Part shown: in pieces, positions 1-39,855 of the stretch | Numbering within the stretch: position 1 is the stretch's first letter | How the letters are laid out: each line of letters begins with the position of its first letter | From: an uncultured Candidatus Saccharibacteria bacterium | Lineage (GTDB): Bacteria > Patescibacteriota > Saccharimonadia > CAILAD01 > BJGX01 | Assembly: GCA_964610335.1 (NCBI GenBank) | Contig: CAZSVP010000001.1 | Location: 287,442 to 351,441 of the forward strand | Length of the DNA: 64,000 bases | Direction: 5' to 3' | Notes under the pieces: model-generated | What the model was told of the DNA's origin: nothing | Database searches by the model: none | What the model saw: the letters and a program-made list of their open reading frames with translations, nothing else | Translations under genes and position numbers: made by a program

Positions 1-1
1 C

Positions 2-196
2 CAGCCGTTCTGCCGCATCGGTTGCTGGATGATGTACCTGGTCAAGGACGTCATCAAGCATCACCGTCGGCACAAGGCAGCCGATCTGGCTGTGGTGCGC
101 GAGGCCGAGCGCGCCACCCGGGCCGCCGACAAGCGGCGTCGAGAGCAAGAGGCTCTCGACTACCGGATGCGGACCGGCCAGGTCCACGTCGGCTGA
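2..196 (+). CDS. 3' end of an unknown gene (partial at window edge), high-GC
   Basis: Frame starting at nt 2 is open to TGA at 194-196 (…AVVREAERATRAADKRRREQEALDYRMRTGQVHVG). GC-rich, unlike adjacent genes. Confidence 0.3.
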   Translation, partial: QPFCRIGCWMMYLVKDVIKHHRRHKAADLAVVREAERATRAADKRRREQEALDYRMRTGQVHVG

Positions 197-218
197 TCAA
201 GCCCAGGTTCTCGAAGTA

Positions 219-245
219 CCCCGGCGCCCTTCTGGGCGCCGGGGG
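219..245 (+). terminator. GC-rich hairpin (ccccggcgccc-ttct-gggcgccgggg) without T-tract
   Basis: Perfect 11-bp inverted repeat directly downstream of the high-GC partial ORF. Confidence 0.3.
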
Positions 246-277
246 AGAACCAATGAACTAATATTTTATAGACACCA

Positions 278-317
278 GAACAACCATTGCTTCATGCAAA
301 TTGGTTGTTCTTTTTGT
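278..317 (+). terminator. Hairpin (gaacaacca…tggttgttc) plus TTTTTG run between convergent genes
   Basis: 9-bp stem followed by a T-run on the + strand. Abuts the stop of the ABC transporter gene. Confidence 0.4.
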
Positions 318-2072
318 TTAGAGCTCAATTTTGCCAGTAGCAGATTGTATCTCAAACAGACGTTTGTACAACCCATCTAATTGAATCAGCTCGGCATGGG
401 TACCTCGCTCTTTGATGCGACCTTTCTCCAGCACTAGAATTTCGTCGGCGTGCCTTACGGTACTAAGTCGATGGGCAATAATTAGCGACATTCGGCCTTC
501 CGTGAGTTTCTTCAAACCCGCTTGTACCAGTCTCTCCGACTCACTATCTAGCGCACTGGTAGCCTCGTCAAGTATTATCAGGTCGGGATCCTTTAGAATG
601 GCTCGGGCTATGGCGATCCGTTGCTTTTGTCCGCCGCTGAGCTTTATGCCACGCTCGCCAACAAGTGTGTCGTATCCTTTTGGTAAATCCTTAATGAACT
701 CATGAGCATGTGCTAGCTTACAGGCTGCAATTAGCTCTTCCTCGGTCGCATCGGCTTTGGCTAGGCGAATGTTTTCGACTACCGTAGTGTTGAAGAGCGC
801 TACGTCTTGCATAACTATGGCCTCATGCTTACGGATGGATCCCTGAGTATAGTTGTCTGCAGATTCACCATTAATATTTAGGTCTCCAGAGCTGGGCCTG
901 TAGAATCGCAATAGTAGCTTGGTAATTGTACTTTTGCCTACCCCGGATGGCCCCACCAAGGCAACGGTTTTGTTAGCTGTAAGACTCAGTGATATGTCTA
1001 CCAACGAACCCTTTTTTACATCTGGATAGGTAAACGAAACATTTTGGAAATCGACTGATTCTATCTTGTTGAGCTGTCGTGCATCTTTTGTGTCTTCGTA
1101 GGTCGGTTTGGTATTGAGCAGTTTTACCAATCTTCCACCAGTAACATTGGTATCTCCAGTAAAGTCGATAAAACGACCCAGTGGCGGCATGGAATTTGCT
1201 AAGTCGCGAGCGTAGAAGGCTACCACAAAGATATCACCAGCACTAAAACGACCCTTGAGCGCATAGTAGGCAACAAATGATATAGCCAGCAACATACCAA
1301 GGCTACCGAGGGTGTCACGAGCTGTGTTGTAGCGCCGTTGGATCTTGAATTGTTTCATACGATGAGTGCTGATGGACTCTGTAGTGTTTACAAAATTTCT
1401 TTCCACACTTTCCTCTGCGCTCATGCTCTTGACTGTAGCCATATGTGATACTGTCTCAGAAAGCAATCCAGAGTAGCGCTCAAACTGTTTGTTAGCTGCT
1501 TCGTTGTATCGCTTAGAGCGACGGACTTTTTGGATGTTTATTGCAATCATAGCTGGGCATACTATCAAGAATATGATTCCAACAATAGGGCTTTTGACTA
1601 AGAGTATTATCAAAATAAAAAGGGTTGTGGTAATCATGGTGCCAAGCCATTCGTTGAACGACCAGAGCCATTCCATAAAATCAAAGATGCCTTGATTGAC
1701 TCTTTGTACTAACTCACCAGGTTTATTGCGCTCGATATAGTCAACTGAAAGATCCATAATTTTTGGGAATACCTTGTTGCGTAACTCGGTGATTGATCGC
1801 ATTCGTACGGTATCGGATATCTTTTCATTAACAAACATCAACACCGTCTCAGCTGCAAATGCTGCTGCAAGAAGTATTAAGTTATATGTAATAGCTTTTA
1901 CTGAGTCTTGACTAGGTTGGTTGATAGCAGCTGTAATTTGATTGATAATATTTCGAAAAATTAGTGGTATAGATACAAATATTATGCTTCTGAACACGCT
2001 GATTGCCATAGTAATAGCTAATCGACGGTGCTGTGATTTTAGCAGGCCTACAAGAGTCAAAATATTGTTCAT
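318..2072 (-). CDS. ABC transporter, fused permease/ATP-binding protein (type I exporter, MsbA-like)
   Basis: 584-aa ORF with an N-terminal 6-TM region and a C-terminal NBD carrying Walker A (GPSGVGKST), ABC signature (LSGGQKQRIAIAR) and Walker B (LILDEATSALD). Confidence 0.85.
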   Translation of the reverse strand: MNNILTLVGLLKSQHRRLAITMAISVFRSIIFVSIPLIFRNIINQITAAINQPSQDSVKAITYNLILLAAAFAAETVLMFVNEKISDTVRMRSITELRNKVFPKIMDLSVDYIERNKPGELVQRVNQGIFDFMEWLWSFNEWLGTMITTTLFILIILLVKSPIVGIIFLIVCPAMIAINIQKVRRSKRYNEAANKQFERYSGLLSETVSHMATVKSMSAEESVERNFVNTTESISTHRMKQFKIQRRYNTARDTLGSLGMLLAISFVAYYALKGRFSAGDIFVVAFYARDLANSMPPLGRFIDFTGDTNVTGGRLVKLLNTKPTYEDTKDARQLNKIESVDFQNVSFTYPDVKKGSLVDISLSLTANKTVALVGPSGVGKSTITKLLLRFYRPSSGDLNINGESADNYTQGSIRKHEAIVMQDVALFNTTVVENIRLAKADATEEELIAACKLAHAHEFIKDLPKGYDTLVGERGIKLSGGQKQRIAIARAILKDPDLIILDEATSALDSESERLVQAGLKKLTEGRMSLIIAHRLSTVRHADEILVLEKGRIKERGTHAELIQLDGLYKRLFEIQSATGKIEL

Positions 2073-2130
2073 ATCTATATGGTATATAGTAATTCAAAGT
2101 TTGACAAGACTGGAAAATGTGGTGTAACTA

Positions 2131-37999: not shown

Positions 38000-38153
38000 C
38001 CACGGGCCCTCGTCCAAATAAGAATTTTTAACCTGGTTATTTTACCAAAAAACTGGTTTTTGATCAATCACTACTTTGACCTCAAGCCAATCTTTGCGCT
38101 ACAGTATGGTTACTGTTCGCATTCTTCACAAGTTCGACAGAGAGGAGCAGCAC

Positions 38154-38771
38154 ATGCTGCCCAAGTTTCACCTCATCAAGTTGTGTGTTGGTGTACAGGA
38201 GTTGATTGGCCACAAGAGTAGTGGTGAGCCGGTACATTCGGCTATCCGCAAGCGGCCCATCGGGAACGCGGCTCGTAGGCTGACACTGACAGGTTTGGAG
38301 GGCGACGAGCAAGTACAGCGCGAGGATATTCGCGATGGCAAGCCTGTTCACGGCGGCACAGAGAAGGCTCTCTACGCCTATCCAATCGAGCACTACCCAT
38401 CGTGGGAGAGAGCACTTGGTTTGCACACCACCTTGACTGCCGGAGCGTTAGGTGAGAATCTCACAATCCATGGTCTGCGCGAAGCAGACTGCTACGTAGG
38501 TGATGTGTGGGCGATTGGGGATGCACAGCTGCGTGTTACCAAACCCAGGCAGCCTTGCTACAAGTTCAACATTCACATGGGCACGCCCCTGGCTGGCAAG
38601 CTCATGTGGCAGAGCGGCCACTGTGGCTGGTATCTGGAAGTGCTCACGCCAGGTGAACTGCTGCCACGTTGCGGTGAAGTGGAGGTTGTAGAGCGTTACG
38701 AGCAAGCACCAAGCATCGCAGAGGTGTTCGCTCAAAAGCGCTCCAAGACTGGTGGAAGGGTCGCTTCATGA
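38154..38771 (+). CDS. MOSC-domain protein (YiiM-like), high-GC
   Basis: RBS agaggagc. Beta-barrel MOSC features including …GENLTIHGL… and a conserved Cys in …KPRQPCYKFNIHMG…. 205 aa. Confidence 0.55.
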   Translation: MLPKFHLIKLCVGVQELIGHKSSGEPVHSAIRKRPIGNAARRLTLTGLEGDEQVQREDIRDGKPVHGGTEKALYAYPIEHYPSWERALGLHTTLTAGALGENLTIHGLREADCYVGDVWAIGDAQLRVTKPRQPCYKFNIHMGTPLAGKLMWQSGHCGWYLEVLTPGELLPRCGEVEVVERYEQAPSIAEVFAQKRSKTGGRVAS

Positions 38772-39211
38772 GTGACGAAGACGAAGTCGATGAGCAGCTG
38801 GAGCGGATTGCCATGCAGATGGATAATCGCTGGCACCAAAGTCGGCGCTTTGTCGAACCGTGTCGAGAGTGGATTGATCGGCATCGTGCGGCGCAGCAAG
38901 ACTCGCAGATCCCGCGCGCCATTGCCTTTGCCAATGCTGCGACTGTCGACAAGGTGGATGAGCTGGTTACCAAGTTCGAGCAGGAGCCCGATCATCACCA
39001 GCAATTGCTGCTGGCGGAAGACCTTGCCGATCTGTTGGTGGGGCTGATTGAGTCGCGCGAACTGGCCATGCGTACGCCGCCATCTGACTCTGTGGAGAAC
39101 TTCTACGACATCGGTGGTGGCCACTACGAGTGTAGTGATTGTGGTGGCCGACTGGCAGTGGTGTTTCTCAGTGCTGCCGAGGTATGTGTGCACTGCTACC
39201 TTAATCACTAG
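38768..39211 (+). CDS. Hypothetical protein with C-terminal zinc ribbon, translationally coupled to the MOSC gene
   Basis: ATGA start/stop overlap. C-terminus …YECSDCGGRLAVVFLSAAEVCVHCYLNH. Acidic N-terminus. Confidence 0.4.
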   Translation: MSDEDEVDEQLERIAMQMDNRWHQSRRFVEPCREWIDRHRAAQQDSQIPRAIAFANAATVDKVDELVTKFEQEPDHHQQLLLAEDLADLLVGLIESRELAMRTPPSDSVENFYDIGGGHYECSDCGGRLAVVFLSAAEVCVHCYLNH

Positions 39212-39273
39212 GTGACATAGTCAAAGATTGAATACATAATTTATACGCCCTCGCGGATTGCACTCTCTAGCAC

Positions 39274-39306
39274 GAGACAACCCTGCGGGGGTGTCTCTGT
39301 TTTTGT
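39274..39306 (+). terminator. Rho-independent terminator (gagaca-accctgcggggg-tgtctc-tgtttttg)
   Basis: Stem-loop plus T-run after the MOSC operon. Confidence 0.5.
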
Positions 39307-39377
39307 TCAAAATGATAGCGTGGTCGTGAGCCGGGGCGATTGTCCCAGCCCACGATCTGTTGGTGAGCACTTCTCGT

Positions 39378-39776
39378 TCAGCCAGTGGCTTCGAGTGGCG
39401 CATCTGCTGGTACCAGCGAGAACACCAGGGTTCGAAAGGCCTCGCGCGCCTGCATCGCCTTGTCGGGTTCTTCGGAAGGATCGACTGCGATCTCGTAGAA
39501 CACTCCCAACGAGTAGCGCAGATCGGGCAGCTGAGCCATCATGGCCTCGATCGCGAACTGGTCGTACTTGGGGATGATCAGTGCCTGTGGGGGTTGTGGC
39601 TGGTCGCGCATGAGGCCATCGGCGAACTGGTCGGTGGCCTCATCTGGGAAGGTGACGTAGATGGTGCCGTCTCCCATCCAATCATGCATGGATGGCCTCG
39701 CCATCTGGCCGTAGCGGGGGTGGTCGGGTTGGACGATGAACACCACGGCATCCTCAATCTTTGGCATGTCTCTCAA
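39378..39776 (-). CDS. Hypothetical protein, high-GC (TTG start with AGGAG RBS)
   Basis: 132-aa ORF. aaggag sits 7 nt before a TTG start. AT-rich promoter region lies to its right. Confidence 0.4.
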   Translation of the reverse strand: MRDMPKIEDAVVFIVQPDHPRYGQMARPSMHDWMGDGTIYVTFPDEATDQFADGLMRDQPQPPQALIIPKYDQFAIEAMMAQLPDLRYSLGVFYEIAVDPSEEPDKAMQAREAFRTLVFSLVPADAPLEATG

Positions 39777-39855
39777 TGTACTACTCCTTGTTCGTTGGGT
39801 AGATCCCTGACAATATTATAATCCTCAAAAACTTATCTGAATACCATAAGCAGTA

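Follow-up and report, generated by a model that had tools for sequence, protein, structure and literature searches.

Most of the GC-rich islands that interrupt a 64,000-nt stretch of an uncultured Candidatus Saccharibacteria genome (GenBank assembly GCA_964610335.1, contig CAZSVP010000001.1, positions 287,442 to 351,441; the whole of this stretch is referred to here as the window) are old, as they predate the split of this lineage from sister lineages in which the synonymous sites of the backbone are saturated. Nine genes (A, B, C, D, H, I, J, K and L; Table 1) stand out in these islands, and we consider it probable that they are clade-specific, single-gene accessory modules of a flexible gene pool that is itself GC-rich, and that a fixation bias holds their GC content at its present level. 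The sequence-only reading of the window that preceded this work had taken the islands for recent and traceable acquisitions from the high-GC actinobacterial hosts of Saccharibacteria or the phages of those hosts, a conclusion that the evidence assembled below does not support.

The composition of the window was measured by sliding windows, per-ORF (open reading frame) statistics and maximum-likelihood change points. The window as a whole has a GC content of 45.7%, and its backbone genes (n = 59) have a GC content of 0.446 ± 0.026, with a maximum of 0.509, and a third-position GC content (GC3) of 0.426 ± 0.056, against which the nine island genes stand out at z = 4.6-8.4. The compositional mosaic described in the sequence-only reading is therefore real, and the GC-rich segments recovered by maximum likelihood (1-245, 5499-6139, 11500-12215, 32823-33280 and 35626-39755) support the borders it had drawn to within about 10-50 nt, apart from the first third of its fifth segment, where genes F and E (35363-36227) reach a GC content of just 0.49-0.52 (z 2-3). 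Two other parts of that description have to be revised. The flanks, said to lie at about 38-45% GC, lie at ~0.44-0.45 and not at 0.38, and what had been drawn as two blocks (about 35340-37860 and 38076-39800) is a chain of separate modules, because between 35.6 and 39.8 kb GC returns to the backbone level at each inter-gene promoter. Every GC-rich unit consists of a gene body and its own 3' hairpin. The island proteins share no relationship with one another, and their cysteine content is four-fold that of backbone proteins (2.7% vs 0.7%) because of their many CxxC motifs, which occur in A, D, I and K.

How long have the islands been where they are? Among the related contigs and loci that we compared with the window, which are labelled by L-numbers (L001, L011, L098 and so on), L011-L014 represent a sister lineage whose backbone proteins are 69-86% identical to those of the window (69-85% by tblastn, 75-86% by global alignment). 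At the same loci this lineage holds copies of H (69-70% identity; orthologue from L011-13), J (78-81%), E (about 70% at the nucleotide level) and the fast-evolving L (34%). Similarly, an 82% relative of B sits at the same RodZ-B-RecA site in L098, where the neighbouring RodZ is 93.5% identical. The L011-L014 copies have a GC content of 0.55-0.64 on a backbone of 0.44-0.49, with GC3 values of 0.64-0.77 in the sister orthologues (0.706 in H, 0.64 in J), and the L098 copy of B is still a GC spike (0.55-0.61 vs flanks of 0.40-0.50). Between the lineages, the proportion of synonymous sites that differ (pS) is saturated in the backbone at 0.67-0.79, save for the short ORF g39958 (0.545), and the synonymous divergence (dS) of RodZ is about 2.4; for island genes pS is 0.53-0.70. 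We conclude that most modules were in place before lineages with such saturated backbones separated.

A second line of evidence comes from the direction of substitution. If the high GC content were the fading record of a recent donor, an excess of changes from G or C to A or T (S>W) over the reverse (W>S) would be expected in the islands. Substitutions were counted among about ten strains, and in the final synonymous test they were polarised by the minor allele, polarisation with the saturated sister lineage as outgroup having been judged biased toward S>W and dropped. Across all sites the islands have 73 S>W and 78 W>S changes, giving an equilibrium GC of 0.575 vs an actual value of 0.559, and the backbone has 328 and 292, giving 0.433 vs 0.462. 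At synonymous third positions there are 28 S>W and 42 W>S changes in the islands, for an equilibrium GC3 of 0.72 (bootstrap confidence interval, CI, 0.63-0.88) vs an actual 0.635, and 198 and 194 in the backbone, for an equilibrium of 0.446 (CI 0.39-0.50) vs 0.451. The S>W share of island changes is 40% vs the 68% expected at backbone per-site rates (binomial p = 1.1e-6), and in D all eight synonymous changes are W>S. This W>S excess, together with the equilibrium GC3, argues that the high GC content of the islands is maintained and not fading, so that amelioration from a recent donor is not what we see. Given the saturated backbone, a two-state calculation from the synonymous counts places the GC3 expected of a passive donor signal at ~0.5, but both lineages keep values of 0.61-0.77. 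Among strains, dS in the island-5 genes E, F and H is mostly 0.013-0.045 vs 0.10-0.24 in most flanking backbone comparisons, in agreement with the pS values between lineages, and these slower synonymous sites point to a fixation bias or to constraint on the synonymous sites themselves.

Chimeric assembly, which had been raised as a concern together with the original claim, is excluded, the junctions being reproduced in independent assemblies. They recur, identical or 95-98% identical, in contigs from at least eight samples. At least 23 contigs from a wide set of samples encode an identical copy of PrsA, the protein adjoining islands 4 and 5, and a comparison of ten PrsA loci (94.5-100% identity) reproduced the backbone-island junctions. 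The junctions of islands 1-3 recur in L096, L097 and L099, with island 3 in L096 and L099. Nine island proteins were looked up, and seven of them have exact copies on record; these fall in small clusters (90% identity) that occur together with backbone proteins on long contigs, one of which is a 420,536-bp NCBI contig. As for the backbone, the best RecA matches listed from a search of 185,579 species genomes are all metagenome-assembled genomes of Candidatus Saccharibacteria (67-73% identity), and more distant contigs of Saccharibacteria type keep the order GidA-VTT-M16-NDK...bPH-PrsA; judged by these matches and this synteny the backbone is saccharibacterial, as had been suspected. The distant Saccharibacteria among the RecA matches listed keep RecA-RecX synteny, and island homologues are absent there. 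Scans of metagenome contigs with the RodZ-like protein and with P0202 found no relatives.

The anatomy of the modules bears out the earlier description of their promoters as host-type and AT-rich. The 80 nt upstream of the island genes have a mostly backbone-like GC content of 0.35-0.47, the exceptions being E (0.50) and K (0.56, its upstream 80 nt falling within the preceding island gene), and sigma-70-like promoter sequences are found upstream of island genes. At the other end, all nine folded island genes (all but F) have a strong 3' hairpin (free energy, dG, -24 to -42 kcal/mol; z -3 to -6.8), heavier than the backbone terminators with their A-tract, short stem and U-tract. A T-rich tail follows the hairpin in five of the nine (C, D, H, I and K) and is lacking in A, B, E and L. 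Hairpins without T-tracts had been described at 219, 12187 and 36237, which is correct for the first and last of these but not for the second (Table 1), and the actinobacterial terminator style that was proposed fits just those four of nine. H has its own terminator as well as its own promoter.

That the island ORFs are real protein-coding genes under purifying selection is clear from the ratio of non-synonymous to synonymous divergence (dN/dS), which in the real frames is 0.05-0.12 for B, 0.24 for C, 0.36-0.50 for D, 0.19-0.60 for E, 0.08-0.18 for H, 0.09-0.23 for I, 0.07-0.08 for J and 0.03 for K. Long ORFs antisense to the GC-rich genes, of a kind that GC-rich DNA typically contains, have ratios of 0.6-3.2, and we rejected as artefacts 11638-12201 (-) in C (2.66), 38732-39208 (-) in K (1.26), the ORFs overlapping I (0.6-1.6 and 1.3-3.2), including 37223-37753 (+), and 37132-37704 (-) (>1). 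Public gene calls in several assemblies choose the 176-aa plus-strand ORF 37223-37753, the wrong strand for I.

Table 1. Coordinates of island genes, neighbouring tRNA genes, candidate promoters and 3' hairpins in the window
Feature	Coordinates	Strand	GC	GC3	dG (kcal/mol)	z	Remarks
Gene A	1-196	+	0.667	0.83			3' part; complete in L099 (11877-12308); 143-aa CxxC orphan between ABC transporter and small membrane ORF/RNase J
Gene B	5446-6084	+	0.568
Gene C	11509-12165	+	0.581
Gene D	32834-33283	+	0.604	0.773
Gene F	35363-35593	+	0.494				weakly elevated
Gene E	35565-36227	+					weakly GC-elevated
Gene H	36633-37088	-	0.607
Gene I	37259-37711	-	0.614	0.755
Gene J	38106/38154-38771	+	0.566
Gene K	38768-39211	+	0.568
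Gene L	39378-39776	-	0.602	0.744
tRNA-Arg(CCT)	32649-32723	-					abuts island 4; also found beside the corresponding site in L100
tRNA-Asp(GTC)	37933-38009	-					mid-hotspot; same position in L001 and L011
tRNA-Thr(CGT) + tRNA-Gly(CCC)	40333-40608	-					close the hotspot
Candidate promoter of B	5370-5398						TTGGCA-17-TACAAT
Candidate promoter of C	11432-11460						promoter-like site
Candidate promoter of D	32755-32783						TTGACA-17-TATAGT
Candidate promoter of H	37161-37134	-					own promoter
Hairpin after A	219-244	+			-38.3	-5.7	perfect 11-bp GC stem, no T tail
Hairpin after B	6092-6135	+			-24.7	-3.6	no immediate T tail
Hairpin after C	12187-12217	+			-34.9	-4.8	13-bp GC stem, then TTCGTTT
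Hairpin after E	36234-36273	+			-41.9	-6.8	long, GC, no T tail
Terminator after K	~39274-39310						canonical hairpin + T-tract

Strains differ by whole modules in the interval from PrsA to the tRNA-Thr/tRNA-Gly pair, which we refer to as the hotspot. Other strains have 1.5 kb extra at window position 37134/37185, and in L001 the region 37134-37933 is replaced by 2.3 kb of different genes and 39306-39840 is missing; gene I is absent from L001 and L004, and gene L from L001. The alternative cassettes of the other strains and of the sister lineage are all Pfam orphans with a GC content of 0.53-0.63 and a GC3 of 0.55-0.85 and, therefore, the flexible gene pool of this clade is GC-rich as a whole. 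Genes for tRNAs abut three of the six island sites. In the sister lineage, L011 holds an extra GC-rich orphan of 408 aa (3746-4972, GC 0.586) between tRNA-Gly and tRNA-Thr, a pair that is inverted relative to the window, and tblastn of this cassette against phages gave no match. In the same lineage, L012 1-7000 (JGI 3300045394) is 16-33% GC, is joined to a 5'-truncated E homologue and a GC-rich island, and has ORFs with weak matches to thymidine kinase, Erv1/Alr sulfhydryl oxidase and SET-domain proteins; this stretch is a chimera produced in assembly or else an insertion at the hotspot, extremely rich in AT and with virus-like gene content. Within the window, the 250 nt from the E hairpin to the H terminator (36278-36529, GC 0.53) contain small overlapping ORFs of 83 aa (plus strand) and 64 aa (minus strand), with dN/dS giving no decision as to which of the two, if any, would be coding, and may be a cassette remnant.

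A 14-nt motif, AAACGAGAAACGCC (in the form A(A/T)ACGA(G/C)AAACGCC), occurs at three cassette junctions (36577-36590 (+), 37185-37198 and 37759-37772), and one strain indel has its breakpoint exactly on the 37185 copy. Read as its reverse complement, the motif forms the T-rich tail of terminator-like elements on the minus strand, laid out as CGCCCC-loop-GGGGCG-TTTCTCGTTT, for example after H, where the motif is conserved in the sister lineage; it is missing at several extra-cassette junctions. There are no integrase or transposase genes within the islands, the search for tRNA-fragment att sites and flanking repeats gave nothing above chance level, and an inverted match of 15 nt that the hairpin after E shows to the 5' end of tRNA-Asp was dismissed as chance, ~1.5 such pairs being expected. 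Phage hallmark genes are absent from the islands, H alone matching PHROGs, and viral contigs gave no close match to H, D or I. The sole tyrosine recombinase gene (25980-26891, minus strand; Phage_integrase and SAM-like N-terminal domains) has a domain architecture of XerC/D type and lies 10 kb from the array; it is the GC-richest backbone gene (0.509), is kept in all related contigs and adjoins no island. At the 3' ends of the cassettes, attC R''/R' cores were not seen, and the hairpins are unrelated in sequence.

Genes F and E, near PrsA, are just weakly elevated in GC. F is a 76-aa CxxC ORF overlapping E, and E is predicted to be a 2-oxoglutarate (2OG)/Fe(II) dioxygenase with an AlkB/prolyl hydroxylase (P4H)-type fold: H123, D125, H182 and R192 are invariant (the HxD...H iron triad and the 2OG-binding Arg), and its AlphaFold2 (AF2) model (pLDDT 94.3) matches AlkB, ABH2, ALKBH6 and prolyl hydroxylases in Foldseek at TM 0.55-0.62 with a probability of 1.0. 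Its membership is at the level of the superfamily only, because its PF13532 score (12.9) is below the cutoff of 31.2. The family is sparse, as a search of 1.84 billion representatives yielded 112 members, one of them 69% identical and all others at <=39%, and the sole named relative is a Saccharibacteria protein. In L100, whose PrsA is 66% identical, an overlapping F/E pair occupies the same place after PrsA (F 44% identical) and is compositionally native (GC 0.46-0.48), and L102 has E with an overlapping upstream F-like ORF, again near PrsA. As the pair is syntenic in these distant contigs, F and E are ancient residents, not imports. L102 itself (Logan SRR16915459) is a Saccharibacteria-type contig of 55% GC overall, with GC3 of 0.65-0.75 and the order bPH-PrsA...F-like-E, so that some members of the phylum normally have a composition like that of the window islands.

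Of islands 1-4, each a solitary gene (A, B, C and D, respectively), the first is cut by the start of the window and comprises ~480 nt. B is a 212-aa clade-restricted orphan with a RodZ-like gene on one side and RecA on the other; its homologues form two clusters only (its own and the 82% relative) among 5.8 billion proteins, and its AF2 model (pLDDT 42.7) is unusable. C is an orphan of apparently secreted type, its N-terminus resembling a signal peptide and its C-terminal half being rich in Pro. D, an orphan of 149 aa that is present in at least nine assemblies, has a Zn ribbon at its N-terminus. The ORFs at the position of D in L100 and L102 carry a Zn ribbon or GGRDM and give short, weak matches to D (E 0.02 and 0.004).

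The hotspot genes are as varied. H is a stand-alone HD protein of ~150 aa with near full-length homology to alarmone hydrolases: it matches the (p)ppApp hydrolase PDB 7SMG (E 1.6e-15, residues 3-127), phrog_990 (E 2.8e-24) and the N-terminal region of TIGR00691 (1.2e-8), and scores 22.2 against Pfam HD_4, below the cutoff of 27.2. We predict it to be a small alarmone hydrolase of the (p)ppApp/(p)ppGpp hydrolase family with a RelA/SpoT-type HD domain. Among the island proteins, H alone has relatives in phages and a PHROGs match; by tblastn these relatives (32-40% identity) belong to phages of Acidobacteriota, Actinomycetota, Enterobacteria and Cyanobacteria. No close relatives of D, H or I were found in IMG/VR viral contigs. 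I is a 150-aa multi-CxxC orphan, probably a RING/Lar-like Zn-binding protein given its weak zf-RING and Lar/ECs_2282 matches. J is a MOSC-domain protein (PF03473, 9.3e-32; 110 bits vs a cutoff of 22.7) which is YiiM-like only, as it scores 115 bits against the YiiM equivalog NF008577 with its cutoff of 294; its relatives within the clade are 97% and 81% identical, and those beyond it are at <=50%. Named relatives of J outside the clade come from Chloroflexota, Burkholderiales, Deinococcota and Saccharimonadia, with Actinomycetota not among them, and the two nearest whose contigs were examined (43-46% identity) lie on contigs of 70-73% GC. K is a 147-aa orphan with a C-terminal CxxC...CxxC, and L is a 132-aa orphan. 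The labels given in the sequence-only reading (secreted, zinc-ribbon, AlkB-like, HD and MOSC) all hold, J being a MOSC protein and H an HD protein, with a 2OG/AlkB-type fold in E, a signal-peptide-like start in C and CxxC motifs in A, D, I and K. Neither PADLOC defence models nor tblastn against plasmids, the latter for island proteins other than H and J, gave a match. The region 31644-39211 is rich in nucleotide-sanitising and signalling functions (NDK, a MazG-like protein, E, H and J, to which L100 adds a NUDIX gene), and this gene content may reflect dependence on salvaged host nucleotides.

A major question arising from these observations is how genes of such composition came to be there. 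The proposal of the sequence-only reading, that the islands are recent, unameliorated gains from high-GC actinobacterial hosts or their phages with terminators in the donor style, now seems very improbable to us. The GC difference is real, the island genes show poor codon adaptation, four of nine hairpins have no T tails, one of the phage matches of H is a Rhodococcus phage (37%) and exchange from hosts to Saccharibacteria has been reported in the literature, but these genes are found at the same loci in lineages whose backbone dS is saturated, there is no near outside homologue for B, J (<=50%) or E (<=39%), no plasmid matches were found, the phage matches of H span many host phyla, S>W changes are not in excess, and the island GC content of 0.57-0.67 is below that of typical donors (65-73% GC). 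That reading had itself held that best matches within the lineage of the flanking genes would speak against it, and since this is where the best matches of the island proteins lie, it fails on its own terms; among the island matches, a minority of which carry taxonomy labels, there was no close actinobacterial or actinophage homologue, and no donor could be traced. Did native, fast-evolving genes instead become GC-rich in place, through a local W>S bias and without any transfer? The equilibrium GC3 at or above its current value is what such a process would give, as are the mild elevation of F and E here relative to L100, the Zn-ribbon or GGRDM-containing ORFs at the position of D in L100 and L102, and the existence of Saccharibacteria genomes of 55% GC. 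We nevertheless think it unlikely, because no homologues of the strongly GC-rich genes could be detected in distant Saccharibacteria (the comparisons of D being as weak as given above), the boundaries are sharp at gene ends, the presence and absence of GC-rich cassettes among strains implies gain and loss from a pool, and H belongs to a phage-typical family.

Could the array at 36.2-39.8 kb be integron-like, or a cluster of attC sites lacking an integrase (CALIN), with site-specific recombination at attC-like hairpins next to tRNA-Asp? Its single-gene units with 3' hairpins, its strain-variable cassette content, the presence of AAACGAGAAACGCC at three junctions with one breakpoint exactly on a copy, and the tyrosine recombinase gene invite the comparison. 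The motif is patchy, however, the cassettes are mixed in orientation and equipped with promoters of their own, R''/R' cores and IntI are lacking, the XerC/D-type recombinase is distant and conserved with the backbone, and islands 1-4 are solitary; for these reasons an integron-like mechanism is not supported, and we rate it as improbable. Least probable of all, to the point of being negligible, is an artefact of chimeric assembly, of contamination or of structured RNA genes taken for coding islands. The contigs do come from metagenome assemblies, and GC-rich antisense ORFs have been mis-called in public annotations, but the junctions recur in many independent assemblies, codon-level purifying selection is clear, and Rfam covariance models matched nothing in the island segments, the matches in the window being RNase P and six tRNAs alone. 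The RNase P RNA (bacterial class A, 225.9 bits) is at 61115-61505, outside the islands.

On the reading that we consider probable, the islands are old accessory modules whose GC content is maintained. About ten independent modules, each with an AT-rich backbone-type promoter and ribosome-binding site, a GC-rich body and a GC-rich 3' hairpin, occupy the intergenic gaps between conserved housekeeping genes, and the PrsA-to-tRNA-Thr/Gly interval is a long-standing hotspot where modules are gained, lost and swapped among strains. Swapping may proceed by homologous recombination after natural transformation, the window encoding both RecA and a type IV pilus cluster. This competence-type cluster, relevant to DNA uptake, is part of the backbone between islands 3 and 4 (14925-25986) and comprises a PilM-like protein, PilB/PilT/PilC-like ATPases and platform protein, several N-methyl prepilins and a prepilin peptidase, as labelled from Pfam marks on some of its genes. 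A GC-favouring fixation bias at synonymous sites, through selection on composition or biased gene conversion, would then keep the modules GC-rich, at or close to equilibrium. The strongly GC-rich genes would ultimately be foreign, from phages or a mobile gene pool, and for some of them an ancient foreign origin is possible. A more radical version, which we entertain only tentatively, is that of a stable two-compartment genome in which a gene-specific bias holds accessory genes 12-20 GC points (20-30 in GC3) above the core. It is conceivable, at rather less than even chances, that the offset in such a genome outlasts synonymous saturation, the islands being a maintained property and not the record of a donor; the bias could come from selection on synonymous composition, such as on transcript behaviour in an epibiont, or from strongly localised GC-biased gene conversion (gBGC).

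Several points weigh against the reading of old modules with maintained composition. Presence in sister lineages has been shown for B, E, H, J and L, with A, C, D, I and K outside that comparison, and the lower dS of the islands could reflect later exchange of islands between lineages. The substitution test draws on just 70 synonymous changes, polarised by the minor allele, in six genes (mainly D, E, H and I) from about ten strains, several of them near-clonal. Nor was a cause of the bias found. Translational optimisation was rejected because the codon adaptation index (CAI) of island genes is lower than that of the backbone (z -1.5 to -5.0), and selection for specific mRNA folds was rejected because synonymous-codon shuffles gave z values of -2.6 to +0.9, with no consistent signal. 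Biased gene conversion would be expected to affect the flanks too, but these are unaffected, and regional gBGC fits poorly with edges that track gene ends. Finally, a GC-rich reservoir as yet unseen (phage, plasmid or host) might still be the source of the modules, as the deep homology search covered B, J and E, with tools that were word-indexed or without taxonomy.

These observations matter beyond the window because atypical GC content is routinely read as both the timestamp of a transfer and the address of its donor, which is tempting for epibionts living on high-GC Actinobacteria; here, a GC-based reading would yield a false story of recent host-to-parasite transfer. If a GC-favouring bias is confirmed, the islands would be a natural case of selection or biased conversion acting on composition within a genome, on its accessory genes only, and the clade-specific alarmone hydrolase, MOSC protein, Zn-ribbon proteins and secreted orphans would become candidate host-interaction genes, in an organism that is now genetically manipulable.

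The kind of feature that we describe is known, namely genomic islets at tRNA-flanked hotspots, and what sets it apart is that the offset runs toward a higher GC content than that of the core and is apparently stable. Like islets, the modules are accessory orphans of atypical composition between core genes, strain-variable and in three of six sites at tRNA genes; unlike them, they lack integrase, att repeats and mobility genes, are GC-richer than the core, and are mostly conserved across lineages with saturated dS without a sign of amelioration. Daubin, Lerat and Perriere are said to have found in 2003 that acquired genes are usually AT-richer than the core. Compared with integron cassettes and CALINs, the window has similarly short single-ORF units of unknown function, with terminal hairpins and in strain-variable arrays, but no IntI, attC cores or regular junction element, and its modules have their own promoters and mixed orientation. 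H resembles the phage small alarmone hydrolases (phrog_990; PDB 7SMG) as a stand-alone HD protein matched over nearly its full length, whereas it is chromosomal, a long resident of the clade and without phage genes around it. Gene exchange between Saccharibacteria or other Patescibacteria and actinobacterial hosts has been reported on the basis of >99% nucleotide identity or of closest-homologue taxonomy (bioRxiv 10.64898/2026.09.16.751625; McLean et al., 2020, PMC7427843). The phylum is the same there, as is the idea of foreign genes in epibiont genomes, but the island genes described here have no close relative outside Saccharibacteria. The closest parallel for the substitution pattern is selection on GC or gBGC, which share with the islands a W>S fixation bias opposing AT-biased mutation and synonymous sites that are not neutral. 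Such effects in bacteria are reportedly the subject of work by Hildebrand, Meyer and Eyre-Walker (2010), Hershberg and Petrov (2010) and Lassalle et al. (2015). The known effects are genome-wide or correlated with recombination, and modest, whereas in the window the bias appears confined to specific accessory gene bodies, with an offset of 20-30 points in GC3 and sharp edges.

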